Positions 14,733-42,268 of a stretch of DNA of 64,000 nucleotides are shown one piece after another (position 1 is the first letter of the stretch; every line of letters starts with the position of its first letter). The notes under the pieces are model-generated. The model saw only the letters and a list, made by a program, of their open reading frames with translations, had not been told where the DNA came from and did no database searches. The stretch is from an uncultured Candidatus Binatia bacterium (GTDB taxonomy: Bacteria; Desulfobacterota; Binatia; Bin18): the NCBI GenBank assembly GCA_965200965.1, contig OZ241744.1:2144001-2208000 (forward strand). The letters run 5' to 3'. A program made the position numbers and the translations under genes.

Positions 14733-14795
14733 GCGGCTCAGGATACGCCAATCACCCTGCCGATGCAAAACGGCAGGGCGGGAAGAATGGACGGG

Positions 14796-17492: not shown

Positions 17493-17537
17493 CTCCTGTG
17501 GTCTTTTGCGGGACCGGGGGCGTTTGGGGGGGAAGGA

Positions 17538-17563
17538 AACGGGGGACAGTCCTGTCCCCCGTT
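17538..17563. terminator. Intergenic hairpin between the two TonB receptor genes (terminator or stabiliser)
   Basis: AACGGGGGACAG-TC-CTGTCCCCCGTT perfect inverted repeat; only a weak pyrimidine tail on the minus strand. Confidence 0.5.
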
Positions 17564-17622
17564 CCGAAAAAGAGAGGGTCGGGGAGGCCGGATGGAGCCC
17601 CCGGCGACGGGAGATGGTCCGG

Positions 17623-20253
17623 CTAGAACTCGAACCCGGCGCGCAGGTAGTAGAACCCGCCGTTGAAGCCGAACGGCGAGGCTTCGGGGTACTTCATGCC
17701 AACCCCAGACCCGGCACCGTTCTTATACGGCACCCGGCGTGGGTACTGGTCGAACACGTTTTCCGCGCCCGCGGCCAGCGTTACCGTCTGCATGAACGGA
17801 ATGTTCCTGAAAGTGTAGGAGGCTTCGATGTCCATCAGCCAGCGCTCACCCGAGCGGAACCCCCAGGCTTGAACATCCGCCGGATAGGAGCGGAAGTTGT
17901 CGAAGAAATGCAACCTGGTCAACAGCCGCCACGGCCCATAGCTATGGTCGGCCGTTAGCGTGAACCGGAATTGCGGCAGCTTTTCTTCGATCTGTGTGAC
18001 CCGCCTGTCGCTGATGATGACAGGATTGCGGCTGTCGACCTCCGTCCTGTTCCAGTTCCCGACAAACGTGAACTCGGTGTTGCCGGCCACGGTTGTTACT
18101 GGATAGGTCGCCACCAGGTCGACCCCCTGCGTAGTGGTGTCAAAGTCGTTGGTGTAGTAGAGCACATCTCTGAGAGAACTCGCCTCGGGCACCAGCATGT
18201 TGAACTGCGCCAGTTGGCCGGGGGTCAAGTCCGAAACCCTGAATCTTTCGCTCAGTGCGATGCGGTCCTGCACTTTGATGCGGTAATAGTCGAGGGTCAG
18301 TTCCAGGGCACCCAGGTTGAAGACGGCACCCACCGAGTAGTTGACGGACTTTTCCGGGGTCAGCGGTTTTGCGCCGAAGAAGGATGCCGCGGGGTGGTGC
18401 GCCGGCAGGGTCCCCTGGTCTACCAGCCCGTCAGCACCGAAAGCCGTGGTGGTGTTCCGCAGGTTGATCTGTCCCGGCGTCGGGGCGCGGAAGCCCGAAC
18501 TGACCGCGCCGCGCAGGGCCAATGCCTCAATGACCTGCCAGCGAGCGGAGACTTTGCCGTTCACGGTCTCGCCGATGTCGCCGTCGAAGTTCTCGTAGCG
18601 TCCGGCGGCCCCGAGGGTAACCGCTCGAATCACCTCGGCTTCCAGGTCCATGTACAGCGCGTAGTTGTGGCGATCCCACTCGCCGGCGACATCGGGCCGG
18701 TAGCCGCCAAACCCGTTCGAGCCGATGCCGAACCCTTGGGCGGCAAGGCTATCGTCAATGTACCAGGAATTCTCTCCGCCGATCTTCTTCTCGAATTCCT
18801 CAATGCGGTATTCAAACCCGAACGCGGCGTTCAACGGGGAGTAGAACAACCCCACGTCAAACGGCCGCGAGATGTCGAAGTTGAATGTTCGTTCGAACTG
18901 CGTGTCCCTGCCCGGTCGGTACGATGTCGGGATATTCGTCCGCATGGCGGCCAGCTGCGGGTTGATGGTGTTGAACATGAAGAGGTCAACGCTGTTCTGG
19001 CCAAAATTGGCACTGACATCATAGAACCAGCCGTTCAGCAGGCTGAACGCACTCTCGACCTCACCGTTCATGCCGAAGACGATGCTCCAGTCCTTCACAT
19101 AACCGCCGAAGCGCGGCGTGAACCCGCCCGGAAAGCGCTCGTTGAACGCAAAGCAATGATCGGGCAGCCCGGCCAGGGCAGCCGTGTAGTCAGCCGCGGC
19201 GTTAGTCGGCACGGCGGGACAGCCTGCACCAGTCCCCGACAGGTCAGCCACTCGTATTGTGGGCGTACCGTCCGCAGGGGTGCCCTCGAACACGCCGCGC
19301 CGGGTATTGGGGTTGCGGTAAAAGAAGCCGCCCTCTACCCTGCGCTCGGCGTAGTTGCCAAAGGCGTACAAGCGGGCGTTGATGTCTTCCAGGTCAAGGC
19401 CCAAGTTGCCGAAGAACTTGTATTCGTACTGGACTTCGGGTGAGCCCCAGATCTGGGCCGCGGGCCGGCGCACATCCGTGTTGCCCGCCTCGATCAGCCC
19501 TCGCGCGTCGCCGCGTTGCACGCTGCGGCTGGTCTCATCGGCATTCATGAACTCAAAGCTGAAGTTGGCAAACCCCGCATCGGTCAGCGGCAGCCCCAGA
19601 TTAGCCGCGACTTTCACCTTGTCGCCGTCGCCATGATAGTTCTGGCCGTAGCTGGTCTGTACCTCCAGCCCCTCGCGGTCTTCCCGCAGCCGGAAGTTCA
19701 ACACCCCGGCGATAGCGTCCGAGCCATACTGGGCTGCGGCTCCGTCGCGCAGCACTTCAACCCGTTGCAACGCAATGGCCGGGATGGCGGACAAATCAAC
19801 GCCCTGCGAGCCATCTGCTAAACCGCCACCCAGGATGCTGATGACCGAACCGCGGTGGCGACGTTTTCCGTTGACCAGCACCAGGGTGTGATCCGGCGGC
19901 AGCCCGCGCAGGTTGGCCGGACGGATGAGCGTGGCGGCGTCGCTGATGGGTTGATCGTTGACGTTGTAGGACGGGACGGACGCGCGCAGCAAGGAGTCCA
20001 GGTCACGGATGCCGTAGGTCTGGAGGTCTTCGCCCCGGATGATGTCTACCGGCACGGCCGAATCCTGGGCCGAGCGTCCGGCCACGCGCGAGCCGACCAC
20101 CCGGTAGGCTTCCAGCCCGACAACATCCTCCTCCGGCTCCGTAACCTGCGGCTCGGTGGCCTGCTGTTGTGTATCCTGTGCGCCGACTGTTGCCGCGCCC
20201 GTCAGGGCGAATATGCCCGCCAATAGACCGTAGCGCCAATTTCTCTTTTGCAT
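17623..20253 (-). CDS. TonB-dependent receptor, paralogue of 14796..17492
   Basis: Same plug and barrel motifs; both proteins end GFNGGFYYLRAGFEF; AGGAG RBS. Confidence 0.93.
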   Translation of the reverse strand: MQKRNWRYGLLAGIFALTGAATVGAQDTQQQATEPQVTEPEEDVVGLEAYRVVGSRVAGRSAQDSAVPVDIIRGEDLQTYGIRDLDSLLRASVPSYNVNDQPISDAATLIRPANLRGLPPDHTLVLVNGKRRHRGSVISILGGGLADGSQGVDLSAIPAIALQRVEVLRDGAAAQYGSDAIAGVLNFRLREDREGLEVQTSYGQNYHGDGDKVKVAANLGLPLTDAGFANFSFEFMNADETSRSVQRGDARGLIEAGNTDVRRPAAQIWGSPEVQYEYKFFGNLGLDLEDINARLYAFGNYAERRVEGGFFYRNPNTRRGVFEGTPADGTPTIRVADLSGTGAGCPAVPTNAAADYTAALAGLPDHCFAFNERFPGGFTPRFGGYVKDWSIVFGMNGEVESAFSLLNGWFYDVSANFGQNSVDLFMFNTINPQLAAMRTNIPTSYRPGRDTQFERTFNFDISRPFDVGLFYSPLNAAFGFEYRIEEFEKKIGGENSWYIDDSLAAQGFGIGSNGFGGYRPDVAGEWDRHNYALYMDLEAEVIRAVTLGAAGRYENFDGDIGETVNGKVSARWQVIEALALRGAVSSGFRAPTPGQINLRNTTTAFGADGLVDQGTLPAHHPAASFFGAKPLTPEKSVNYSVGAVFNLGALELTLDYYRIKVQDRIALSERFRVSDLTPGQLAQFNMLVPEASSLRDVLYYTNDFDTTTQGVDLVATYPVTTVAGNTEFTFVGNWNRTEVDSRNPVIISDRRVTQIEEKLPQFRFTLTADHSYGPWRLLTRLHFFDNFRSYPADVQAWGFRSGERWLMDIEASYTFRNIPFMQTVTLAAGAENVFDQYPRRVPYKNGAGSGVGMKYPEASPFGFNGGFYYLRAGFEF

Positions 20254-27477: not shown

Positions 27478-29877
27478 CTAATACAACACCCGCCGCTCTC
27501 TCAACTGAGCGATGCGCTCATCAGCATAGCCCAGGACATCCCGCATGACCTGCTCGGTATGCTGGCCGAGCAGCGGTGCCGGGGCCTGCACCCCGTTTGG
27601 CGATTCGGTCAGCAACCAGGGAATGCCGGTATGCTTGCGGACGCCGACCTCGGCGTGCGGCAGCTCAACAAAGAAACCCCGCTGCTTGAGATGCGGGTCG
27701 TCGGCCAGGTCTTTGCTGTTCATGGACGGAAAGGCGGCCACTCCCGCTGCCTGCAAGGTCTGTGTCAGCTGCCACTTGTCGCGCTTTTCGGTCCAGGCGG
27801 TGACGATGTTTTCCAGCGCGTCCTCGTTGGCCTTGCGGTCTTGAACGGTGCGGAAACGGGCGTCTGTGCCCAGCCCGGCCTGATCCATAGCCCGGCACAA
27901 CGCCCTCCACTCGGCGTCGTTGCCGCAGGCAATTGACACCCATTCGTCCTCGCCGGCGCACCGAAAACAGGTATGAGGGGCCATCAGCGGGTCGAGGTTC
28001 CCACGGCGGGCAGGTTCAAGGCCGTTCATGGCGTAGTCCATCCAGCCCTCGGGCACCAGCGCAGCCACCGACTCCCACAGGGAAACGTCAATGTACTGGC
28101 CTTTGCCGGTCCGTTTTCGGGCGGCCAGAGAAGCGGTCACGGCCACCGCGGCATGGATGCCGCTGTTGGGGTCGCCGTAGGAAATGCCGACCTCCTGGGG
28201 CGGACCGCCGGCATAGCCGGTCATGGCCGACAGCCCGGTCAGCGGCGCAATGGCCGGGCCGTAGCCCATATAGTTCTTGAGCGGGCCGCTATGCCCATAG
28301 CCGGAAATCGAGGCCATGATGATGTCGGGTTTGATCTTCACCAGGTCGTCATAGCCCAGGCCGAGGCGCTCCATCACCCCGGTCGCAAAATTATCGACCA
28401 CCACATCACTGTTTTGAATCAACTCCTTGACCACGGCCAGGCCCTCGGGGGTGGAGAAGTTGATCAGCACACTCTTTTTGCCCAGGCTCCACTGGTTGAA
28501 CAGCCCTGAGCGGTTCACCCCTGCTTCCATGCCCGTGGGATAGAGCGGCAGGCGACGGGTGACATCAATGCGGGTGTTGGACTCGATCTTGATGACCTCG
28601 GCTCCCAGGTGGCTGAGATACATAGTCCCGTAGGGTCCGGCCCATACCCAGGTGAAGTCGGCCACGCGAACGCCCTCAAGGGGACGGCGCATTGCGGGGC
28701 TGGGGGCCGGGGGCCGGGGAGCGGGGGCTGGAGGCAGCGCGCGCAGGACCTCGTCGGTGTGCTCGCCCAAGAGCGGGGCTGGACGGCGGACCTGCCACCA
28801 CGGCTCGCGCAGCTGGTAGGGCGGGCCAAGCTGGGTGACGGTCCCGGCGTGTGGCTGGCTCACATCAACAAAGAAGTGTCTGGACCGCAGCTGTTCCTGT
28901 TTGCTGAGCTGTTCCATGCCGAACACCGGCGCAAAACAGATCCGCCGTGACTGGGCCTCGTGCCACAACTCTTCAACCGTCCAGTCCTTGACCCATTCGT
29001 CCAGGTACATTTTCATCACGTCCTGGTTTTTAGAACGCTGGGTGGCGTCGGCAAAAATCTCCCAGCCGGCCCACTCAGGATTGCCCATCAACTCGACAAT
29101 CCGCTCCCACTGGTCTTCTTCAACCGCCAGAATGAAAATCAGCCCGTCTTTGCACTCAAAGATGCCCCACGGGTACAGCAGCCGTTTTCCTAAACGCGAG
29201 GCGATCCGGTCGCTGTACGAGTAGTAGACAAAGTTCTGCTCCAGAAAGGCGGCGATGAAGGCCTGGGTGGACAGGTCGATATGCTCCCCACAGCCGGTGT
29301 CCAAGGCCCGCTGATAGGCCGCCAGGGCCGCCATAGCGCCGGACACGCCGCCCTGGAAGTCGCACTGGTGGCCGGCGACTTTCAAGGGCGGGAGGTCTGG
29401 AAAGTCCGACGCGCCGGGACTCAGCCAGCCCCAGCCGCCGGCGTGGGACACATTCAGCTCATAGGCCCTGTAGTCTTTGTACGGCCCGCTCAGACCAAAA
29501 GGGGTGATCGAACACATGACCAGCCGGGGGTTGAGCTGCCGGAAGGCACCATAGTCAATGCCCCGCTCGGCCATCTGGGCGGCCGGGTAGTTGTGGACCA
29601 CGATATCGGCCCAGGCGACGAGCTGGGCCAGCCGGTCCTGGTGGCGGGTCAGATCAAGCGTGATGCCCCGCTTATTGGTATTCAGGGCCAGGAACAGGCC
29701 GCTCTTTTCCGGGTCGGCCAGCCCGCGGGGGAAAGGCCCACGCTGCCGGGCCGGGTCTCCGCCCGGTTCTTCGACCTTGACCACATCGGCCCCGAGGTCG
29801 GCCATGATTTTGCCGGCGTATGCGGCCGAGACCAGTTCTCCCAATTCTACCACCTTGACACCTTCGAGTCCTTGCAT
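27478..29877 (-). CDS. Tandem (two-domain) CaiB/BaiF family III CoA-transferase
   Basis: Two repeats of LEGV.V...LGA.V.K.E...NxxK, and APLLGEHT/APLLGQHT. Confidence 0.92.
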   Translation of the reverse strand: MQGLEGVKVVELGELVSAAYAGKIMADLGADVVKVEEPGGDPARQRGPFPRGLADPEKSGLFLALNTNKRGITLDLTRHQDRLAQLVAWADIVVHNYPAAQMAERGIDYGAFRQLNPRLVMCSITPFGLSGPYKDYRAYELNVSHAGGWGWLSPGASDFPDLPPLKVAGHQCDFQGGVSGAMAALAAYQRALDTGCGEHIDLSTQAFIAAFLEQNFVYYSYSDRIASRLGKRLLYPWGIFECKDGLIFILAVEEDQWERIVELMGNPEWAGWEIFADATQRSKNQDVMKMYLDEWVKDWTVEELWHEAQSRRICFAPVFGMEQLSKQEQLRSRHFFVDVSQPHAGTVTQLGPPYQLREPWWQVRRPAPLLGEHTDEVLRALPPAPAPRPPAPSPAMRRPLEGVRVADFTWVWAGPYGTMYLSHLGAEVIKIESNTRIDVTRRLPLYPTGMEAGVNRSGLFNQWSLGKKSVLINFSTPEGLAVVKELIQNSDVVVDNFATGVMERLGLGYDDLVKIKPDIIMASISGYGHSGPLKNYMGYGPAIAPLTGLSAMTGYAGGPPQEVGISYGDPNSGIHAAVAVTASLAARKRTGKGQYIDVSLWESVAALVPEGWMDYAMNGLEPARRGNLDPLMAPHTCFRCAGEDEWVSIACGNDAEWRALCRAMDQAGLGTDARFRTVQDRKANEDALENIVTAWTEKRDKWQLTQTLQAAGVAAFPSMNSKDLADDPHLKQRGFFVELPHAEVGVRKHTGIPWLLTESPNGVQAPAPLLGQHTEQVMRDVLGYADERIAQLRERRVLY

Positions 29878-29979
29878 GCCGTCCCCTCCCTCGCATCTCG
29901 CACGAATTCTCAGCCGGCCATGATAACCGGCTGCCGTGGCTTTTCAACACACCGCCGGCTTTTGTACCCTGCGGCCAGG

Positions 29980-30090
29980 GTGTTAGGCAGACACCCCGCA
30001 AGGAACGAGAACCCACCGTAAACTTAGAGTTTGAATCACGCTCAGGGGTGAATGTGTTAGGCAGACACCCCGCAAGGAACGAGAACCCAC
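29980..30090. repeat. Two exact 37-bp direct repeats separated by a 37-bp unique spacer
   Basis: GTGTTAGGCAGACACCCCGCAAGGAACGAGAACCCAC at 29980-30016 and 30054-30090; diverged homologue at about 34491-34527. Confidence 0.95.
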
Positions 30091-30138
30091 GGGGCGGAGC
30101 AAGGTTTTCCCTGATTCCCGACGAAGCCCCCCGGAGGG

Positions 30139-32232
30139 CTACTCCACGCCGGAAATCACAAAGTTCTGGAGGCTCTGCTCCCACTCCAGCACGGTCGTGG
30201 CTCCTGGAGCGGGGAAATCGGGGGCCCGGCACTCGCCGGCCAAGCCCCGGACAAAGGGATCGTCGGTCAGGTGGACGACCTCAAAGGCGTTGGTCTGACC
30301 GATCTGCTGGGCCACCTGCCCGGTGCCGGCCCAGGCTTCGGCCGTGTACGTCCCCTCGGGCAACTCGTTGAAGTTCCAGGTCAGCCCAAACCCGGTCAGG
30401 CCAGGATCGTCCTCTTCACGGATGAGGCACTGCCCGCGCGTATCGGGGCGGCTTGAGCCATAGGGCGTGTCCAGGGTGGCGACACGGCGGCCAGCCTCGT
30501 CAAAGAGGCGGACTTCGACGCTGGGGGCCGAACAGACCCAGCCCCGGATCAGGCCAATGCCGCCCCTGATCCCGTTGGGGGGGGGGTCCTCGATAACGCC
30601 CTTTGCGTTGATGGAAGGGCGGTAGGGGGCGGGGCAGGCAGGGGCCGGCGGGCAGGAGGGACAGGTCCGGGCTGGTGCGAGGCTGGCGAGTATGCGGTCA
30701 TCCCCGGGGGTGCCCTGCTGCACTCCGGCGAGGCGGGCAACAATGTGGTAGGCCCCGCTGGTCTGTGGTGTCTTCCCCTGCACCGTCACCCAATAGAACC
30801 CCGGCCGTTGGACATGGTAAAAAATCCGGCAATTGCTTCCCTCACCACTGGTATCGTTGGCCGCCAGCTGCTGGCCCCCCGGCCCATAGAGAGAGCAGAC
30901 CGTATCGACGGTGCCGAGCGTCTGGACTTCAAGGAGGCCGGGTGTAGCGACATCAATCCGGTAGTTCTGCACCTGCGGCGGGGTCCTGGCCACCAAGGTA
31001 GCAGGGGTGGCGACCCCCATTGACGGGGCAGTAATGGGGAAGGATTGCAGGCGGATGATGTATTGCCCGGTGGTTGAGGGACGCTCCCCCTCCACTTTCA
31101 AGATGGAGAGGCCTCCTGGCAGAATCACGGCTCTGAGTAAAAAATTGGAATCAACTCCACTATCAGAGTCCGTCCTGGACAGGCCACTCGAGCCGGGCAC
31201 AGGTCGCCTCAGAACGTCAAGCACACTCGGCGAGTATAAGGTCCCTTTGACATCCGTCCCCGATCCCGAGGTGATGCTCAGATGCCTCCTGGATTCTATG
31301 GTCGTGAGCAGAGGCGTACTGCCGAAATAGAGAACAGCGATGTATTGTGCCTCTCCTCTTCGCGGAATATTGCCGACGTTCCACGTCACTGGTCCGGAGG
31401 AAACAGCGGGGACCACTACAGTGCTCCCACTGAGCTTGTAGTCCACCCTTAGAATGTAATTCCCGCGCGCAGTGCTGCTCCGTGCCCCCACAGACACGGT
31501 AAAGGTGACCCCAAGCTCAATTGGCAGGACGATCCGAAAATTGTTCCCTACGCCGCTATTATCGTCCGCCGCAATCGCCCTCACGGTTGATGTCGCCGTG
31601 CCGATGGTGTCTACGCTCCCGGTCGTCTCTACGGTCAGGAGGCCGTCGCCGGAGGCGATGAAAGTGTAGGCGTCGCGCTGATTGTCGCGCATAAAGACGC
31701 CCCCGCCTGAGGTTCCGTCGGTCGTGGGAATAAGGCCATCAAAATGGCTGTAGAAGACATATGTTCCTCTGGCTCCGCCCTTCCCTGCTACCACTACAAA
31801 ATACTCTCCTGAGCTGACCGGATGTTCTATCCTGAAATGTCCAGTGTCGGGATCTTGCGTCGCAAGCTGGGTGCGTCCCTGACACAGAGACGCGGCCGAG
31901 GCAGTGAGGGTCCCTCTGGGAATGGCCGTTACTATCAGCTTCCCCGAGATAAGTGGGGGAACCCTGATCCTGAAGTAATTGACTGGGCTTGACGTCGCAA
32001 TATTACCGGGGAGCCGCCCTGAGGAGACACCGTTTCTGAGACGCCTATCAGAATCGCTCGCGAGATTTATGGTGAAATGGCGCGTATCTTCGATATCTGT
32101 GCTATCGCCGTCATCGGCTTGCATATTGAAGGCGGCAAATTGATTCACATTGCAGTCTGGAGCCTGGGCTTGGGCCGGCGGCCCCCACAGCAAGGCACAG
32201 GCTGCCAGGGCGAGGAACAGGGCGGTTTTCAC
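30139..32232 (-). CDS. Secreted/surface protein with repeated PPC-like beta-sandwich domains and a Cys-containing C-terminal domain
   Basis: Signal peptide after GTG 32232 (VKTALFLALAACALLWGPPAQA); about 4 repeats with T.G.VDT.G...DD.SG...NF.I...G.Y; Pro/Cys linker; alternative start 32292. Confidence 0.8.
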   Translation of the reverse strand: MKTALFLALAACALLWGPPAQAQAPDCNVNQFAAFNMQADDGDSTDIEDTRHFTINLASDSDRRLRNGVSSGRLPGNIATSSPVNYFRIRVPPLISGKLIVTAIPRGTLTASAASLCQGRTQLATQDPDTGHFRIEHPVSSGEYFVVVAGKGGARGTYVFYSHFDGLIPTTDGTSGGGVFMRDNQRDAYTFIASGDGLLTVETTGSVDTIGTATSTVRAIAADDNSGVGNNFRIVLPIELGVTFTVSVGARSSTARGNYILRVDYKLSGSTVVVPAVSSGPVTWNVGNIPRRGEAQYIAVLYFGSTPLLTTIESRRHLSITSGSGTDVKGTLYSPSVLDVLRRPVPGSSGLSRTDSDSGVDSNFLLRAVILPGGLSILKVEGERPSTTGQYIIRLQSFPITAPSMGVATPATLVARTPPQVQNYRIDVATPGLLEVQTLGTVDTVCSLYGPGGQQLAANDTSGEGSNCRIFYHVQRPGFYWVTVQGKTPQTSGAYHIVARLAGVQQGTPGDDRILASLAPARTCPSCPPAPACPAPYRPSINAKGVIEDPPPNGIRGGIGLIRGWVCSAPSVEVRLFDEAGRRVATLDTPYGSSRPDTRGQCLIREEDDPGLTGFGLTWNFNELPEGTYTAEAWAGTGQVAQQIGQTNAFEVVHLTDDPFVRGLAGECRAPDFPAPGATTVLEWEQSLQNFVISGVE

Positions 32233-32245
32233 AGGTGACACTTTG

Positions 32246-32261
32246 CCCCCCCCCCCCCCCC
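32246..32261. repeat. C16 homopolymer (G16 on the coding strand) at the 5' end of the surface-protein gene
   Basis: 16 consecutive C. Confidence 0.9.
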
Positions 32262-32403
32262 GCGCCAGTTTTGGCGTAGAACATATGTGCATCTTCTTCT
32301 ATCAGTATCACGATCTTGATCCGCGTTCAATCAGCCTGTTGTCTCGGCTCCTCAACACGCGCCGGCTCTTGCACCCTGCGGCAGGTGGTCGTGCGTTCCT
32401 GTG

Positions 32404-32892
32404 TCAGGCTGCCCCTTTCGGCGGCGCAGTACGTTCAATCAGCGTCCGCAAGGCGAGCATGGTTTCTGCATGGCGTTCGGCGTGGGCGAGCGTGGCTTCT
32501 GCATGGCGTTCGGCGTGGGTGCGCATGGCTTCCATGGTTTCGGCGTGGCGTTCGGCGTGGATGCGCATGGTTTCTGCATGGCGTTCGGCTTGAGTGCGCA
32601 TGGCTTCCATGGTTTCGGCGTGGCGTTCGGCGTGGGTACGCGTGGCTTCTGCATGGCGTTCGGCTTGGGTGCGCATAGCTTCCATGGTTTCGGCGTGGCG
32701 TTCGGCGTGCTGTTGTTCGCGGCGGTCGCCCATCCGTGCCATGTAGCGAATGCCGTAGCCGACGATCCCGGCCTGAATCAGCCCGACGGCCAGGGCAACC
32801 CAGGCCTGCAGATGGGCGGCCGTGACCGCGGCCTCCTGCAAGGCGAGCGTGGCCTGCTCAAAGGTGGTGAGGGTGCCAGCGGTGTCAAACAT
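32404..32892 (-). CDS. Membrane-anchored His-rich repeat protein, copy 4 (7 AERHAE units, 162 aa)
   Basis: One TM segment (WVALAVGLIQAGIVGYGI), [HQ]AERHAE repeats, LIERT terminus. Confidence 0.75.
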   Translation of the reverse strand: MFDTAGTLTTFEQATLALQEAAVTAAHLQAWVALAVGLIQAGIVGYGIRYMARMGDRREQQHAERHAETMEAMRTQAERHAEATRTHAERHAETMEAMRTQAERHAETMRIHAERHAETMEAMRTHAERHAEATLAHAERHAETMLALRTLIERTAPPKGAA

Positions 32893-32924
32893 CAGGCGTC
32901 GTCCAGGTGGTCTGCGTTCCTGTG

Positions 32925-33479
32925 TCAGGCTGCCCCTTTCGGCGGCGCGGTACGTTCAATCAGCGTCCGCAAGGCGAGCATGGCTTCTGCATGGCGTTCG
33001 GCGTGGGCGAGCGTGGCTTCTGCATGGCGTTCGGCTTGGGTGCGCATGGCTTCCATGGTTTCGGCGTGGCGTTCGGCGTGGGTACGCGTGGCTTCTGCAT
33101 GGCGTTCGGCTTGAGTGCGCATGGTTTCTGCATGGCGTTCGGCTTGAGTGCGCATGGCTTCCATGGTTTCGGCGTGGCGTTCGGCGTGGGTGCGCATGGT
33201 TTCTGCATGGCGTTCGGCGTGGGTGCGCGTGGCTTCTGCATGGCGTTCGGCTTGAGTGCGCATGGCTTCCATGGTTTCGGCGTGGCGTTCGGCGTGCTGT
33301 TGTTCGCGGCGGTCGCCCATCCGTGCCATGTAGCGAATGCCGTAGCCGACGATCCCGGCCTGAATCAGCCCGACGGCCAGGGCAACCCAGGCCTGCAGAT
33401 GGGCGGCCGTGACCGCGGCCTCCTGCAAGGCGAGCATGGCCTGCTCAAAGGTGGTGAGGGTGCCAGCGGTGTCAAACAT
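32925..33479 (-). CDS. Membrane-anchored His-rich repeat protein, copy 3 (9 units, 184 aa)
   Basis: Same architecture as the other three copies. Confidence 0.75.
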   Translation of the reverse strand: MFDTAGTLTTFEQAMLALQEAAVTAAHLQAWVALAVGLIQAGIVGYGIRYMARMGDRREQQHAERHAETMEAMRTQAERHAEATRTHAERHAETMRTHAERHAETMEAMRTQAERHAETMRTQAERHAEATRTHAERHAETMEAMRTQAERHAEATLAHAERHAEAMLALRTLIERTAPPKGAA

Positions 33480-33511
33480 CAGGCGTCGTCCAGGTGGTCT
33501 GCGTTCCTGTG

Positions 33512-33925
33512 TCAGGCTTCCCCTTTCGGCGGCGCAGTACGTTCAATCAGCGTCCGCAAGGCGAGCATGGCTTCTGCATGGCGTTCGGCGTGGGTGCGCG
33601 TGGCTTCTGCATGGCGTTCGGCTTGAGTGCGCATGGCTTCCATGGTTTCGGCATGGCGTTCGGCGTGGGCGAGCGTGGCTTCTGCATGGCGTTCGGCTTG
33701 AGTGCGCATGGCTTCCATGGTTTCGGCGTGGCGTTCGGCGTGCTGTTGTTCGCGGCGGTCGCCCATCCGTGCCATGTAGCGAATGCCGTAGCCGACGATC
33801 CCGGCCTGAATCAGCCCGACGGCCAGGGCAACCCAGGCCTGCAGATGGGCGGCCGTGACCGCGGCCTCTTGCAAGGCGAGCGTGGCCTGCTCAAAGGTGG
33901 TGAGGGTACCGGCGGTGTCAAACAT
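33512..33925 (-). CDS. Membrane-anchored His-rich repeat protein, copy 2 (5 units, 137 aa)
   Basis: Same architecture as the other three copies. Confidence 0.75.
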   Translation of the reverse strand: MFDTAGTLTTFEQATLALQEAAVTAAHLQAWVALAVGLIQAGIVGYGIRYMARMGDRREQQHAERHAETMEAMRTQAERHAEATLAHAERHAETMEAMRTQAERHAEATRTHAERHAEAMLALRTLIERTAPPKGEA

Positions 33926-33957
33926 CAGGCGTCGTCCAGGTGGTCTGCGTTCCTGTG

Positions 33958-34404
33958 TCAGGCTGCCCCTTTCGGCGGCGCAGTACGTTCAATCAGCGTC
34001 CGCAAGGCGAGCATGGTTTCTGCATGGCGTTCGGCGTGGGCGAGCGTGGCTTCTGCATGGCGTTCGGCTTGGGTGCGCATGGCTTCCATGGTTTCGGCGT
34101 GGCGTTCGGCGTGGGTGCGCATGGTTTCTGCATGGCGTTCGGCTTGAGTGCGCGTGGCTTCTGCATGGCGTTCGGCTTGGGTGCGCATGGCTTCCATGGT
34201 TTCGGCGTGGCGTTCGGCGTGCTGTTGTTCGCGGCGGTCGCCCATCCGTGCCATGTAGCGAATGCCGTAGCCGACGATCCCGGCCTGAATCAGCCCGACG
34301 GCCAGGGCAACCCAGGCCTGCAGATGGGCGGCCGTGACCGCGGCCTCTTGCAAGGCGAGCGTGGCCTGCTCAAAGGTGGTGAGGGTGCCGGCAGTGTCAA
34401 ACAT
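33958..34404 (-). CDS. Membrane-anchored His-rich repeat protein, copy 1 (6 units, 148 aa)
   Basis: Same architecture; only copy with unique upstream sequence. Confidence 0.75.
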   Translation of the reverse strand: MFDTAGTLTTFEQATLALQEAAVTAAHLQAWVALAVGLIQAGIVGYGIRYMARMGDRREQQHAERHAETMEAMRTQAERHAEATRTQAERHAETMRTHAERHAETMEAMRTQAERHAEATLAHAERHAETMLALRTLIERTAPPKGAA

Positions 34405-34473
34405 CAGGTACGTCCCGACCCGGCCTTTCTACCCTGTTTTATCTTGGTTATCCAGTAGCCAGTAGGCCGGCTC

Positions 34474-34501
34474 TTGCACCCTGCGGCCAGGGTGCTATGC
34501 A
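34474..34501 (+). promoter_or_regulatory. Putative sigma70-type promoter containing a palindrome
   Basis: TTGCAC-N16-TATGCA with extended TG; GCACCCTG-CGGC-CAGGGTGC palindrome at 34476-34495. Confidence 0.4.
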
Positions 34502-34527
34502 GGACTCTGGAAGGAACGAGAACCCAC

Positions 34528-35676
34528 ATGGCGGAGCAACGTTTTTCTCTGATTAGCGACGAAGCCCTGGCCGCCCTCCGGCAACTGATCAAGGTGCCGA
34601 TTGAGGACTCGCTGGAGCCGTGGTGCTATGAGGCCAGCCGCGACAACATCCGTCACTACGCCCACGGCATTGGCGACGATAACCCGCTGTGGTGTGACCC
34701 CGACTATGCCGCCACAACAGCCTACGGCACCCTGGCCGCTCCGCCGTCGTTTGTTTTTCCGCTGAACCGCATTCTGAGCGGCTATGTCGGCGGGCTGCCC
34801 GGCGTACACGCCATGTGGGCCGGGGCCGATATCAGCTGGCACAGCCCCATGCTGCGCGGCGACGAGTTCACCACCAAAGCCTGGCTCAAAGACCTGATTG
34901 AGCACGACACCCGTTTTGCCGGCCGGGCGATCCAGCAGGTCTACCATGTGGAGTACTACAATCAGACCGGGCGGCTGGTGGCCAGCGGCGACAGCTGGTG
35001 TTTTCGGACCGAGCGCGATACCGCCCGCGAGCGGGGCACCAAATACACCGCGCTCAAGCACCGCCAGCCTGTTCGCTATTCGCGTGACGCTCTTGCCCGA
35101 ATCTTTGCCCAGTACGCCGAGGAAAAAATCCGGGGGGCAACCCCACGCTATATTGAAGATGTGCAGGTCGGTGACAGCCTGCCGACTATGGTCAAAGGCC
35201 CGATGACAGTGACGGGCTTTATCTGCTACGCCCAGGGCTGGGGCGGGCTGTATATTCGGGCCAACCGTCTGGCCTGGAAGCAGCTCAAGAAACATCCCGG
35301 CCTGGGCATCCCGGACCGCTTCGGCATCCCTGATGTGCCCGAGCGGGTCCACTGGGACGGCGACCTGGCCGCCCTGGTCGGTACGCCCGACGCCTATGAC
35401 TACGGACCGGAGCGCACCTCGTGGATGACCCACCATCTGACCGACTGGATGGGCGACAGTGGCTTTCTGTGCCATATCCATGTGGAAATCCGGCGGCATA
35501 ATCCGGTCGGAGACACCCTGTACATCAACGGCGAGGTCAGGCGGATTTTTGCACAAGACCACGCCCACTACGTCGAGATTGCCCAGACTGCCACGAATCA
35601 GAATGACGAGTTGTCTGTCCATGCTACGGCCATCATCCGGCTCCCGTCACGGGTGCCGTCACTGCGAAAGGAGTAG
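34528..35676 (+). CDS. MaoC-like double hot-dog fold dehydratase/hydratase
   Basis: DNIRHYAHGIGDDNPLW, APPSF, second domain EDVQVGDSLP...HWD...DWMGD; ATG at 34528 after AAGGA. Confidence 0.85.
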   Translation: MAEQRFSLISDEALAALRQLIKVPIEDSLEPWCYEASRDNIRHYAHGIGDDNPLWCDPDYAATTAYGTLAAPPSFVFPLNRILSGYVGGLPGVHAMWAGADISWHSPMLRGDEFTTKAWLKDLIEHDTRFAGRAIQQVYHVEYYNQTGRLVASGDSWCFRTERDTARERGTKYTALKHRQPVRYSRDALARIFAQYAEEKIRGATPRYIEDVQVGDSLPTMVKGPMTVTGFICYAQGWGGLYIRANRLAWKQLKKHPGLGIPDRFGIPDVPERVHWDGDLAALVGTPDAYDYGPERTSWMTHHLTDWMGDSGFLCHIHVEIRRHNPVGDTLYINGEVRRIFAQDHAHYVEIAQTATNQNDELSVHATAIIRLPSRVPSLRKE

Positions 35677-37237: not shown

Positions 37238-37957
37238 ATGACGAAACAGGAGAAAACAGCCAGCAACAGAGGAGAGGACTGGAATGTTGATATTACCGAA
37301 TTCTCCGTTGTTTTGCTTGCCACTTCCAACAATCCGTCAATTTTAAACCCGGATTTCCTGCAATATAACGACATCGTGGACGCGAGTCAGCAGATACAGG
37401 AGCCTCGTATTTCGACTCCAGCTTTTTCCCAAGTGATATTCCAGGACGGGCTCACCGTGACCGCCGACCCGGACCGCGTTATATTTGCGCAAACCAGAGG
37501 CAGATTGGCCACAGAAGACATTGTCTGCCCAGAAATAGCAAAACGCTATGTGAAGACAGTTCCGCACGTCACCTACCGCGCCGTCGGTATCAACCCGAAA
37601 GGCTTTAGACGCTCGGGGGACGGAGCACCTGACAGGGTAGCAAACGCTCTGACCGACAAAGGAGCATGGCTGTCATTCAAGGACACCATACCGGAAATTC
37701 AGCTCAAGGCGGTGTACCGTTATTCCGGACGGACAATTTTCCTGGACGTTATTGAAGCCAGACGAGAAGCTGACGGACGCCAAACTCCTGGAATACTGTT
37801 TCAGGCGAACATTCACCGTGATATCACAGAGACAAACCCGCAGAAGCGTACCGAGGGCTTGTTGTCTATTATCGACTCCTGGAAAGAAGACCTGTCCGAG
37901 TTTCATGTCCTGGTAAATAAGGTTCTACGAAAGGAAGCGGAATGCCCATTGAACTGA
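37238..37957 (+). CDS. Hypothetical protein, first gene of an AT-richer three-gene island (TIGR04255-like by motif)
   Basis: SVVL...NNPSILNPDFL, PHVTYRAVGINP, FQANIHRD; overlaps the next gene. Confidence 0.75.
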   Translation: MTKQEKTASNRGEDWNVDITEFSVVLLATSNNPSILNPDFLQYNDIVDASQQIQEPRISTPAFSQVIFQDGLTVTADPDRVIFAQTRGRLATEDIVCPEIAKRYVKTVPHVTYRAVGINPKGFRRSGDGAPDRVANALTDKGAWLSFKDTIPEIQLKAVYRYSGRTIFLDVIEARREADGRQTPGILFQANIHRDITETNPQKRTEGLLSIIDSWKEDLSEFHVLVNKVLRKEAECPLN

Positions 37958-38745
37958 ACTCTCAAACAGACAGGGCGAATATCACCACAACGGTTGAGAC
38001 TCCGCAGTATGATTGGGACCAATCTCTACTCTCCTGCGACCAGCCCACGACCCCAGACACAGCAATCATGCAGCGGCTTGGCTTGGCGTATGATCGAGGC
38101 CAACTTGGGTCTCGTGAGCCGGTTCCATGTGTTCCGAATTCCCCGACCCCTCTTTCCAGTTGGAGCGGGACAGAATATCAATCCGATAATACCCAGGCCG
38201 AAGAGCAATTAGCACAAAGGGCTTTGTCCATTCTTCCCCAGTTGATGCCCCAGGTAAACCGATTCCTCAGCGAGATCATCTCGGCCTGGACCACCCCCCA
38301 GTTGATGCCTCGGGTAGACCGACAGGCTTTCCCAGCAGCTCGGAACATCCTGGCTGAGTTTGTCGTGCGTGGTGCGAGCAGTTTCCCGGTCTCACTCGTC
38401 AACGCTTTGGGGGATCTCCAGGAAGTGACCGATGAGGCGTGTGAAGAAGGGCTCCCTCTACCGTCTGATGTGGCGCGACAAAACGCAGACCGCCTGTTGC
38501 GAAAAATGTATACAATCTCGCCCCGTCGTTTCGAGGTATATCCTACACAGGATGGCGAGATTGCCATTGACGCGCCGGATGGGCACGGGCGATCAGTGCT
38601 GTTGCTGTGCGATTCAGAAGGGGGGGCGCTGTGCCTCGTCAATATGAACGGGAACCATCGCCGCGCCCGGTATTCCACTACCGACACGCTTCCTGATGGC
38701 TTCGTGCGTGAAGCCTTGGCCGATCTGGAACGGCAGAGTGATTGA
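37942..38745 (+). CDS. Hypothetical protein, putative antitoxin-like
   Basis: Low-complexity N-half with a PQLMP duplication; globular C-half (EVYPTQDGEIAID); overlaps both neighbours. Confidence 0.7.
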   Translation: MPIELNSQTDRANITTTVETPQYDWDQSLLSCDQPTTPDTAIMQRLGLAYDRGQLGSREPVPCVPNSPTPLSSWSGTEYQSDNTQAEEQLAQRALSILPQLMPQVNRFLSEIISAWTTPQLMPRVDRQAFPAARNILAEFVVRGASSFPVSLVNALGDLQEVTDEACEEGLPLPSDVARQNADRLLRKMYTISPRRFEVYPTQDGEIAIDAPDGHGRSVLLLCDSEGGALCLVNMNGNHRRARYSTTDTLPDGFVREALADLERQSD

Positions 38746-39154
38746 ACCTGTGCATGTTCCCAAAGATATTGCACCCGAAGAGGAACTCGGACGTGGTGTG
38801 TTTTCGGAGAAACACAAGCACCGCGCTACACGCTCGCGTGTTCCGTTCCATGTGTTTCTGGAAAAACCGGGGAAGACCGAGATTTCTGTTGACAGGTTGA
38901 GGATCGCTCCACCGGGTGAAGCGCGTACAATTGCCGACAAAGTAGCTGCGGCGCGTAAGCGTGCTTTTCACGGATGGGCCTTCGTTATTGCTGAACGGGC
39001 TGTCAGCAATAAGCGGCGGGTGACTGCGAGTCCGCTTCCCGACAATCCCTATCACGCGGACATCATACTGCCGCAGCTTGCTGCCGATGATCGAGCAGAG
39101 CAGAAGCGACACGCTCAAGAATTGGCGGATGCTTCAGAGTGGCGTGGTCGTTGA
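38738..39154 (+). CDS. Hypothetical protein, putative ADP-ribosyltransferase-fold toxin
   Basis: E.LGR...F...EISVDR...P...NPYHADI pattern; GTG at 38738 overlaps the upstream stop. Confidence 0.65.
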   Translation: MIEPVHVPKDIAPEEELGRGVFSEKHKHRATRSRVPFHVFLEKPGKTEISVDRLRIAPPGEARTIADKVAAARKRAFHGWAFVIAERAVSNKRRVTASPLPDNPYHADIILPQLAADDRAEQKRHAQELADASEWRGR

Positions 39155-40354: not shown

Positions 40355-41545
40355 CTAATCCGGCAGTCCCAACACCCGCTTGGCAATCACATTGAGTTGA
40401 ATCTCGCTCGTCCCGCCCTCAATCGTGTTGCCCCGTGAACGCAGCCAGTCGCGAGTCAGGCCGAGCTCGCGCTCATCAAAGCCCGGCCCTTCCCAGCCCA
40501 GGGCCTGCGGACCGGCAATCGACAGCAGGAGTTCCTGGCGGCGCTGGTTGAGTTCAGTCCCGTAGATTTTGAACATTGAGCTTTCCGGACCTGGCGGGCG
40601 GCCGGCCTTGGCCGCGTCACGGCTGCGCTCGGAGGTCAGCCGAAACGCCATATTGTCCATCTCGAAGCGGGCGATACGGTCGCGCAGCGCCGTGTCGGCG
40701 AGCCGTTCGTGGTCAAAATCGAGATATTTTCTGGCCCAGTCGCGCAGCCCGCGGCGTTTGCCGCCCCCGCCACTAAAGGCGGTGGCGATCATCGACCGTT
40801 CGTGGTTCAACAGCGCCTTGGCCACGCTCCAGCCCTCGTTCACCCGGCTGACCACATTTGTGGCCGGCACCCTGACATCAGTCAGAAAAGTCTCGCAGAA
40901 CGGCGAGGAGCCGCTGATGAGTTTGATCGGGCGGGTTTCCACCCCGGGAGTTTCCATGTCCATCAGGATGAAGGTGATGCCCCGGTGTTTGGGTGCGTCC
41001 GGGTCGGTCCTGACCAGCAGAAACATCCAGTCGGCAAAGTTGGCGTAGGAGGTCCAGATTTTCTGGCCGTTGATGACGTAGAAGTCGCCGTCGAGCACGG
41101 CCCGGGTCTGGAGCGAGGCCAGATCGCTGCCCGAGCCGGGCTCTGAATAGCCCTGACACCAGCGGATTTCACCCCGCACAATTTTGGTCAGGTGTTCGTG
41201 TTTTTGTTCTTCGGTCCCGTACTCCAGCAGGGTCGGGCCGATCATGGTCAGGCCAAAGCCGATGAGCGGCACCGGCAGCCTGAGCGACGCCATTTCCTCG
41301 CGCAGAATCCTGGCCTCGGCCTTTGACAGTCCGCCGCCGCCGTACTGGGTCGGCCATTCGGGCGCAGTCCAGCCCTTCTCAGCCATGCGGTCCAGCCAGA
41401 CTTTGGCGTCTGGATTCCTGTAGTGCGCCTTGCGTCCGCCCCAGTTGCCCTCCAGCTCGCTTGACGCTGTGCCGATAAGCGACGCCGGGGCGTGGTCTGT
41501 AAGCCACTGACGGGTTTCGACACGAAAGGTTTCAAGATCGGCCAT
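40355..41545 (-). CDS. Acyl-CoA dehydrogenase family protein
   Basis: WCQGYSEPGSGSDLASL, NGQKIWTS, TIEGGTSEIQLNVIAKRVLGLP; ATG at 41545 after GAGGAGG. Confidence 0.95.
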   Translation of the reverse strand: MADLETFRVETRQWLTDHAPASLIGTASSELEGNWGGRKAHYRNPDAKVWLDRMAEKGWTAPEWPTQYGGGGLSKAEARILREEMASLRLPVPLIGFGLTMIGPTLLEYGTEEQKHEHLTKIVRGEIRWCQGYSEPGSGSDLASLQTRAVLDGDFYVINGQKIWTSYANFADWMFLLVRTDPDAPKHRGITFILMDMETPGVETRPIKLISGSSPFCETFLTDVRVPATNVVSRVNEGWSVAKALLNHERSMIATAFSGGGGKRRGLRDWARKYLDFDHERLADTALRDRIARFEMDNMAFRLTSERSRDAAKAGRPPGPESSMFKIYGTELNQRRQELLLSIAGPQALGWEGPGFDERELGLTRDWLRSRGNTIEGGTSEIQLNVIAKRVLGLPD

Positions 41546-41880: not shown

Positions 41881-42123
41881 TCATGGGCCACTCCTTCCTT
41901 GCTCCCCGGTGCGTTCAATCAGCGCCCGCAAGGCTTCCCCCTGCTGGCGGAGGGCTTCCATTGTTTCGGTGTGCTGCGCATCCCGTGCGCCGGCGGCTTT
42001 GCACATCAGCCATAAGTCCCCGCCAATCAAGCCCGCTTGCAGGAACCCGATCCCGACTTGGGCCGCGGCAATCAGATTACCGGTTTCGCGCAAGGCGATC
42101 ATGGCGGTTTCGTATTCGGTCAT
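41881..42123 (-). CDS. Small membrane-anchored protein related to the 32.4-34.4 kb array (single H.ETMEA unit)
   Basis: GIGFLQAGLIGG.L.LM...RDAQHTETMEALR...LRALIERT matches the array proteins; GGAGGG RBS. Confidence 0.75.
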   Translation of the reverse strand: MTEYETAMIALRETGNLIAAAQVGIGFLQAGLIGGDLWLMCKAAGARDAQHTETMEALRQQGEALRALIERTGEQGRSGP

Positions 42124-42202
42124 GCTGGCCCCTCCACACGGTCATTTTACGCCGGCCAAGCCAAGCGAAACAGGCAAACAGAGCTGAGCGGGCCGGGTCA
42201 AG

Positions 42203-42268
42203 CATTCGGGCGCGGTCCAGCCCTTCTCAGCCATGCGGTCCAGCCAGACTTTGGCGTCTGGATTCCTG
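42203..42268. repeat. 66-bp intergenic copy of 41355-41420 (inside the acyl-CoA dehydrogenase gene)
   Basis: 65/66 identical, same orientation. Confidence 0.95.

Follow-up and report, generated by a model that had tools for sequence, protein, structure and literature searches.

The question raised by this locus is why a bacterial genome should carry, side by side, four genes for membrane-anchored, histidine-rich coiled-coil proteins that share a near-identical N-terminus and differ in the number and order of their repeat modules. The genes occupy positions 32404..34404 of a 64,000-nt stretch (hereafter the window) from an uncultured Candidatus Binatia bacterium (contig OZ241744.1, positions 2,144,001 to 2,208,000), whose genome, G000, is a single contig of 3.62 Mb. 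A reading made from the sequence alone had described a set of variable stalks built by combinatorial shuffling of 14- and 11-residue modules. Our analysis instead places the array in a family that is real, selected, and without a name in any library searched. The explanation we favor, with some but not high confidence, is that the family forms a coiled-coil scaffold that spans the membrane, its ends conserved and its stalk free in length provided helical phase is kept; it would have spread as a passenger, with amplification serving dosage. The array itself is a recent insertion of this accessory family, amplified in tandem.

The array and its insertion

Parsing of the four open reading frames (ORFs) reproduced the reported module orders exactly (Table 1): each copy consists of a 61-residue N-terminus, the modules, and a 26-residue end, and all four ORFs are in frame. 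The three 32-nt spacers share the same sequence, and the 183-nt N-terminal parts of the four copies have only five variable sites, four of which are third-codon positions. Tandem Repeats Finder returned a whole-gene array with a period of 446 (score 2053) and nested periods of 33, 42, 75, and 108 nt, in agreement with the two nested levels of duplication first proposed. As every 14-mer in the four copies directly precedes an 11-mer, the working units are of 25 and 36 residues, equivalent to 7 and 10 helical turns, and by the periodicity rules given in PMC4786415 the stalk helices are nearly straight. Histidine accounts for 6.6-8.2% of residues. A Sigma-70 promoter scan of 32200-34600 returned no sites, and the exact 184-residue sequence of copy 3 was not present in the protein collection searched.

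Table 1. Positions of the array, its flanking duplications, and related features (window positions unless a locus is named).
Feature	Position	Strand	Remarks
Copy 1	33958..34404	-	148 aa; modules 14-11-11-14-11
Copy 2	33512..33925	-	137 aa; modules 14-11-14-11; AlphaFold2 single helix 10-130
Copy 3	32925..33479	-	184 aa; modules 14-11-11-14-11-11-14-11
Copy 4	32404..32892	-	162 aa; modules 14-11-14-11-14-11
Spacer 1	33926..33957		32 nt
Spacer 2	33480..33511		32 nt
Spacer 3	32893..32924		32 nt
Left partial copy of the CoA-transferase/MaoC intergenic region	32333..32385	+	32361-32385 is the 25-bp direct repeat
Right copy of the direct repeat, running into the MaoC upstream region	34466..34491	+	
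Additional partial copies of this intergenic region and of the MaoC 5' end, bounding the 717-aa insert	29852..30129	+	
717-aa ORF, signal-peptide-like start	30139..32292	-	Second cargo of the 4.6-kb insert, outside the family
P0005, 80-aa repeat-free paralog	41881..42123	-	Lineage-specific insertion
Eight-copy array, second subfamily	L022:7016-10154 (G000:C1:2753015-2756153)		tad operon, between secretin and CpaE-like genes
Four-copy array of an unrelated protein: signal peptide, coiled coil, transmembrane helix, coiled coil	L182:1270-3645 (G000:C1:2391270-2393645)		150/164/164/176 aa
Three tandem CCDC90-like genes	L183:951-2537 (G000:C1:2994951-2996537)		116/156/149 aa

Read depth was taken from Logan contigs of four runs from four studies, and X1 among them may be the source sample. 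The array is collapsed in these contigs to a common N-terminal piece, and none of them runs across its full length. The depth of this piece against that of the flanks was 116.5 versus 32-37 in X1, 26.7 versus 7.5-9 in X3, 48 versus 11-12 in X6, and 130 versus 47-56 in X11. The resulting 2.3- to 4.4-fold excess rests on rough unitig depths, and the differences between samples carry no copy-number claim, but it supports a genuine multi-copy array rather than a single gene. An assembly artefact is ruled out by these ratios together with the variant copies found in other assemblies. Four runs labeled as sponge metagenome contain 57-60% of the sampled words, and X6 among them covers both flanks as well as pieces of the array. 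Runs X12-X16, whose shares are small, do not enter these figures; X13 gave sparse cover of another locus.

Copies in the other assemblies are equal in length to those of the array and carry different module letters (P0006 and P0007, 148 residues; P0098, 137; P0099, 162). They look like the outcome of conversion and point change more than of active combinatorial shuffling, so that of the claim of shuffled repeats the module orders stand and active shuffling is the less likely part.

The family is under purifying selection. The ratio of nonsynonymous to synonymous change (dN/dS) was 0.25 in the non-repeat blocks of 21 disjoint pairs, drawn from 77 genes with usable blocks, and 0.17-0.22 between copy 1 and the closest congener copies, four in number. 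Homologs, whose absence would have spoken against the sequence-only reading, are plentiful: a single array copy used as query returned 94 of them.

Comparison with related genomes points to the origin of the array. In all seven congeners the CoA-transferase and MaoC-like genes are directly divergent and the array is absent; G000 carries between them a 4.6-kb insert of two parts, a gene for a 717-residue protein and the array, and incomplete copies of the ancestral intergenic sequence border each part. These copies include a 25-bp direct repeat that encloses the array, and its 19-nt core is present just twice in the genome. The array is thus a lineage-specific insertion bounded by a 25-bp duplication and subsequently amplified. 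Similar traces are seen elsewhere in the family. The repeat-free paralog P0005 lies beside a 74-nt duplicate of the 5' region of an acyl-CoA dehydrogenase gene (41347-41420 and 42195-42268), and both its site and that of a pair of copies at C1:1.771 Mb are empty at the orthologous positions of the closest congener, G007. In the tad operon of G007, the repeated unit takes in the 5' end of the downstream gene, the product expected from unequal recombination between flanking duplicates. The steps leading to the array may have been a duplication at microhomology followed by unequal recombination, with increased dosage as the result.

Two features of these insertion sites are recorded here in their own right. 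The 717-residue ORF has no Pfam match over cut-off, and a C16 tract at 32246-32261 (G16 on the coding strand) lies near its start, likely upstream of the true start; this tract is 8 letters shorter in run X6, and with 32 G/C runs of at least 10 in G000, phase variation is possible. Beside the 1.77-Mb pair, an element of about 180 nt (L023:7484-7667) has about ten matches of 69-75% in G007 and is possibly a small mobile element or a repeated gene.

Anatomy and predicted topology

Family anatomy was examined in the 168 of 253 proteins that possess both anchors used for alignment, a Gly at the end of the transmembrane (TM) helix and a LIERT-type cap. Three parts are fixed across the family: a single TM helix bearing a conserved stripe of Gln and Gly, the motif HxExM, and the cap ALRxLIERT. 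The repeats are dispensable; the shortest members, of 55-90 residues, lack them. The single TM helix first read in each array protein was borne out and falls at about residues 27-48, ahead of the repeats. Lys and Arg are more frequent C-terminal of the TM helix in 97.6% of the 168 proteins, which by the positive-inside rule predicts an N-out/C-in orientation. The His-containing stalk is thus predicted to be cytoplasmic and not displayed at the surface. At 0.15 nm per residue, the cytoplasmic part would measure about 12-19 nm in the array copies and 4-5 nm in minimal members.

Stalk length varies under a strict rule. The distance from the TM-end Gly to the cap takes values of 25, 29, 32, 36, 39/40, 43, 47, and onward, with a best period of 3.6 (R 0.78, 140 proteins). 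When only the 33 unique lengths up to 90 are counted, R is 0.49, which none of 1000 random draws reached, the highest of them giving 0.34. Stalk repeats were detected in 83 of the 168 proteins, and their periods are only 7 (38 proteins), 11 (30), 18 (9), 22 (2), and 25 (4). Repeats ahead of the TM helix, present in 32 of the 168, have periods of only 7 (30) or 14 (2), with a best period of 3.53. All length changes therefore keep helical phase on both sides of the membrane, in line with the earlier remark that 14- and 11-residue modules preserve coiled-coil register. The repeat letters differ between lineages, which indicates that the expansions were independent even though the sequences are kin. 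In G007 the copies contain only 11-mers, in 2, 3, 4, and 6 units, so that the 14-mer is the product of a recent insertion of three residues.

Conserved positions form one stripe comprising Gln -18, Gly -10, Gln -7 (148 of 168), Gly 0, Met +4 (153 of 168), Arg +11 (156 of 168), HxExM, and the cap. AlphaFold2 models copy 2 as one unbroken helix with a pLDDT of 90, and the His residues of this copy are phase-locked with its Met/Leu stripe (R 0.95, period 3.57), opposite Glu, Arg, and Gln. As the intramembrane Gln/Gly stripe is in phase with the Met/His/Ala stripe of the stalk, we infer that parallel copies of one protein form a homo-oligomeric coiled coil that passes unbroken through the membrane; that it is a trimer is a guess from the established behavior of polar core layers. 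The proteins would accordingly be single-pass inner-membrane helices with the N-terminus outside, likely self-associating into a coiled coil through the membrane. Their conserved C-terminal cap would be held in the cytoplasm at a reach of 4-19 nm and would likely act there as a scaffold or adaptor at the envelope. The His residues would provide polar core layers, and stalk length would be tolerated as long as helical phase is kept.

The same residues allow another explanation, in which the periodic His, Met, and Glu make the stalk a metal-binding or pH-responsive element, with His3 layers in a trimer and a length that sets capacity or sensitivity. The phase-locking of His on the hydrophobic stripe would suit this role, as would the conservation of H66, E68, and M70 of the HxExM motif at 90% or more in 144 sequences and the rarity of stalks without any His (3 of 168 proteins). 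However, many relatives lengthen by His-free heptads or possess a single His, and the predicted location of the stalk is cytoplasmic. No metal-transporter or metal-resistance family appears in the Pfam matches of 116 neighboring genes (out of 150; the 34 left out were duplicates or orthologs of scanned genes, or fragments). Nor was an output domain or fusion found among the four longer matches, which we read as frameshift or start extensions (7993 candidates scored). We consider a sensor or metal-binding role quite unlikely. Since extension by His-free heptads is common, His-richness is not the core of the family, although one HxExM is near-invariant and His falls on the core stripe.

Relatives, spread, and gene neighborhoods

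The array is not a one-off but one of many loci of a large family. A profile built from 19 short members returned 643 clusters at 50% identity (E<=0.001). G000 itself encodes 22 intact paralogs, 16 of which lie in tandem groups of 8, 4, 2, and 2, plus several broken or weak copies; up to 33 matches occur per genome. Within the order, matches were found in all seven genomes of genus g1, 25 of 28 of g8, and the one genome of g11, and in none of the 19 genomes, several of them incomplete, from eight other genera. In a sample of the phylum, 2 of 301 genomes had matches, G000 included. Among the 77 named loci, which represent the best 80 of 136 confirmed matches, are some from metagenome-assembled genomes of Alphaproteobacteria, Gammaproteobacteria, and Nitrospinota; a search of the JGI collection returned only 12 loci. 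At least two members occur at 21 of the 77 loci, and independent arrays are present in several phyla. One protein labeled Gemmatimonadota is identical to Binatia copies at 53-57 of 58 N-terminal residues, for which misbinning is possible; two of these Binatia copies are on a small contig bearing a rep gene. A tree was built from 71 short cores, and with 60 columns it is weak; in it, each array groups by itself and the Pseudomonadota label requires at least three changes, a pattern consistent with transfer followed by local amplification but no proof of it.

Searches of Pfam, PHROG, NCBIfam, and PADLOC found no model at curated cut-off, and when the threshold is relaxed to E<=1 the broadest match of any model takes in 7 of 32 members. 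A PDB sequence search gave two matches, neither significant (E 0.08 and 0.47), and a PDB fold search with the single-helix model gave none at E<=10, a result that says nothing for a bare helix. These results agree with the earlier statement that no described family could be recognized. Literature searches, which excluded subscription papers and most supplements, likewise turned up no account of the family.

Comparison with known systems nevertheless reveals instructive similarities. The Bdr proteins of Borrelia possess an inner-membrane anchor and helical repeats of 7, 11, and 18 residues, arranged as a conserved N-terminal domain, repeats, and a C-terminal TM helix. They form a multi-paralog family (PFam80) whose genes contain complex, imperfect direct repeats, the number of which varies from strain to strain (PMC3303823). 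The present family is likewise a multi-copy paralog family of unknown function with variable repeat number, as seen in the 22 paralogs of G000 and the 2, 3, 4, or 6 hendecads of G007, but its TM helix is N-terminal, its repeats lie on both sides of the membrane, and its motifs are HxExM and ALRxLIERT. Neither the KID repeat (PF02524) nor a Bdr model had a match in the four ORFs (Pfam, E<=0.1) or in P0002 (NCBIfam, E<=1), and neither is among the top 25 families listed for the other 31 members.

CCDC90-like proteins also possess a stalk, which is trimeric. This group (DUF1640, PF07798), which includes MCUR1, CCDC90B, and prokaryotic homologs, comprises small membrane proteins with an N-terminal head, a coiled-coil stalk that starts with the beta-layer motif [aliphatic]-A-T-K-[polar]-[DE], and a C-terminal anchor (PMC4786415). 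In G000 these proteins are also multi-copy, tandem, and length-variable by repeats of 7 and 11 residues, and they are often adjacent to members of the present family; their anchor, however, is at the opposite end. PF07798 had no match over cut-off in the four ORFs, while control proteins of the same genome do match, and the ATK motif is absent from the four translations, the AlphaFold2 helix being unbroken. The F-type ATP synthase subunit b combines an N-out TM helix with a cytoplasmic coiled coil containing hendecads, and is of fixed length and single copy within the atp operon. It shares with the present family the order of an N-out single TM helix, here predicted, and cytoplasmic coiled coil, but the family differs in being length-variable and multi-copy and has no Pfam match. 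The best reading by analogy is an accessory membrane scaffold resembling Bdr and CCDC90-like proteins but of opposite topology.

A third comparison bears on a different role, that of a holin-like or type I toxin-like permeabilizer acting in the manner of BhlA/TpeE or TatA, which would cluster and weaken the membrane for abortive defence or non-lytic export. Members of BhlA/UviB/TpeE (PF10960, TCDB 1.E.27) are small proteins with an N-terminal, N-out TM helix followed by a charged amphipathic helix, and their hallmarks are a T-Q-G motif, a 14-residue aromatic TM helix, and a K/R-x-N-x-E-R-E motif (PMC9527704). The coarse topology predicted here, a single N-out TM helix and then an amphipathic helix, is the same; the nearest ESM Atlas clusters are small phage proteins, one of them 28% PF10960, although at 0.83-0.84 they are under the 0.9 lead level; and phrog_1625 gave a weak match (E 0.011) to 2 of 32 members. 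Against this, the family has a long variable stalk, PF10960 finds nothing in G000 at E<=1, and hhalign against a three-sequence BhlA alignment gave a probability of 0.3%. None of the three hallmarks is evident in the column frequencies of the 168 proteins, where the only reminiscence is a pair of residues just past the TM helix, Arg and then one that is mostly acidic or small. Pfam matches of the 116 neighbors show no linkage to an endolysin, toxin, or bacteriocin gene and no fixed antitoxin partner. No confirmed match was found in IMG/VR, which gave one unconfirmed candidate, in PLSDB, or in INPHARED, whereas two small rep-bearing contigs do carry a family gene. The 22 intact, partnerless copies of G000 are also hard to reconcile with a toxin. 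A permeabilizer is thus improbable.

The neighborhoods of family genes show no fixed partner. The 116 neighbors scanned with Pfam include nine toxin-antitoxin (TA), six restriction-modification (R-M), four transposase, two plasmid rep, two CCDC90-like, and two tad genes, the remainder being largely metabolic or without a match. The upstream neighbor is co-oriented in 65 of 75 cases versus 359 of 494 control genes (p 0.01) and the downstream neighbor in 47 of 75 (p 0.08), as expected for passengers at operon ends. A DNA methylase gene of G000 has one copy immediately downstream, and a broken copy lies between HsdM and HsdS. Two small plasmid-like contigs carry a family gene directly downstream of a rep gene (L030:3095-4748 and L051:4796-6276; TrfA and Replicase), followed in one of them by an MmeI-type R-M gene. 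At L025:4957-9869, four copies are interleaved with chimeric AlbA_2/TPR fragments in an R-M island and flanked by an FRG-domain gene and a Schlafen AlbA_2 gene.

A further setting in G000 is the tad operon (secretin, TadA, and CpaB by Pfam; the CpaE label is positional, with no Pfam match), which holds 10 of the 22 intact copies. The eight-copy array there has a depth of about 5-7 times that of its flank in X1, and G007 has five copies at the matching place. The family could accordingly assist or modulate the Tad (Flp) pilus apparatus, its other loci being strays. Of 26 tad loci surveyed, after four extra pieces were dropped, nine have an intact member no more than 1.5 kb from the CpaE-like gene and two have a relic, and the tad-linked members belong to at least two different subfamilies in several positions. 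However, 15 of the 26 loci have no member, and with neither universal presence nor fixed position the family differs from a core Tad component. In addition, eight genomes without a match to the CpaE-like protein (G005, G014, G045, G047, G056, G057, G063, and G065) contain 6-24 family matches, and the window array is far from tad genes. Of all the roles considered, we find this one the least probable.

For the scaffold itself, the landing of copies at the ends of operons, within R-M/TA islands, after plasmid rep genes, and inside tad operons suggests an arena of conflict or tuning at the inner membrane, involving mobile elements, phage, or the Tad pilus. This is the weakest step of our explanation, and we put it forward only tentatively. 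Several observations count against it or against the scaffold-passenger explanation as a whole. The 21 neighbors among 116 that are TA, R-M, transposase, or rep genes were counted without a matched control, and most annotated neighbors are ordinary metabolic genes. PADLOC 2.0 gives no consistent match, no single model picking up more than 2 of the 32 members at E<=1. Flanking direct repeats occur at 8 of 71 family loci versus 22 of 397 controls (p 0.11), leaving a family-wide target-site duplication unsupported, and among 15 G000 loci tested only the window array has a direct repeat within 300 nt. Finally, three of the array copy lengths (148, 137, and 162 residues) recur in other assemblies, so that lengths could be selected and not merely tolerated.

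Length-variable arrays across the genome

The window array is not the only structure of its kind. Our analysis identified 54 regions of close direct repeats in G000. Among them are the four-copy array at L182, whose proteins differ by heptads and have no Pfam match of note, and the three CCDC90-like copies at L183, which vary by 7- and 11-residue repeats; PF07798 has 16 matches in the genome. Numbers of CCDC90-like and family matches are correlated across genomes (Spearman 0.77 in 37 genomes and 0.58 in 25 near-closed ones), a relationship overstated by kinship. Membrane stalks in tandem and of variable length are therefore a recurrent trait of these lineages and not peculiar to 32404..34404. 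Because arrays of this kind are also formed by two unrelated families of membrane coiled-coil proteins, length diversity is more likely to reflect tolerated slippage plus dosage than a code. With this genome-wide pattern, the four module orders are less likely to embody a special code, and one is left to ask why such rods accumulate.

Such a duplication-prone genome might also amplify a harmless small membrane protein that has no useful function, as a nearly neutral passenger. The abundance of direct-repeat regions is what this explanation would have, as are the lineage-specific sites, the frameshifted or decayed state of some copies, and the lack of a fixed context. It is opposed by the dN/dS of 0.17-0.25, the strict conservation of phase on both membrane sides, and the near-invariant residues across 144 diverse sequences, although selection against toxic misfolding could mimic part of these signals. 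We regard neutrality as improbable and retain the scaffold amplified for dosage. A more ambitious extension of the scaffold is that in sponge-associated bacteria of several phyla, at least three unrelated families of membrane-anchored rods were convergently amplified into tandem arrays of diverse lengths as an adaptive library. In the present family, His3 core layers of a rod running through the inner membrane would act as a metal or pH switch, and the conserved cap would intercept phage or pilus machinery at graded distances, making these proteins a so far unrecognized class for envelope defence or tuning; this is conceivable but unlikely.

The family is large, has no name in the libraries searched, and was met in our searches only in a small number of genera from uncultured lineages. 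It may therefore represent a symbiont-specific trait that enrichment studies based on Pfam or KEGG have missed. Its minimal members (about 70-90 residues) offer a tractable model for what variable-length stalks of the Bdr and CCDC90-like kind do in bacteria, and the stalks provide a natural series of His-cored coiled coils with repeats of 7, 11, 18, 25, and 36 residues for structural work. Even if the amplification is only tolerated, these loci document a regime of duplication and slippage acting on several helical families in one genome.

Other repeated or unusual regions were noted in passing. Within the window, 14787-19607 contains two tandem TonB-receptor-like genes (a label from our reading of the repeat), about 2.8 kb apart and 74-87% alike, and 37238-39154 is a block of low GC content (about 55%) between the P450 and acyl-CoA dehydrogenase genes, with three co-oriented ORFs (239, 267, and 152 residues) that have no Pfam match. 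Elsewhere in the genome, two regions of about 33 kb (G000:C1:271784-305588 and 1132569-1165221) consist of 387- to 441-nt repeats and probably encode giant repeat proteins.

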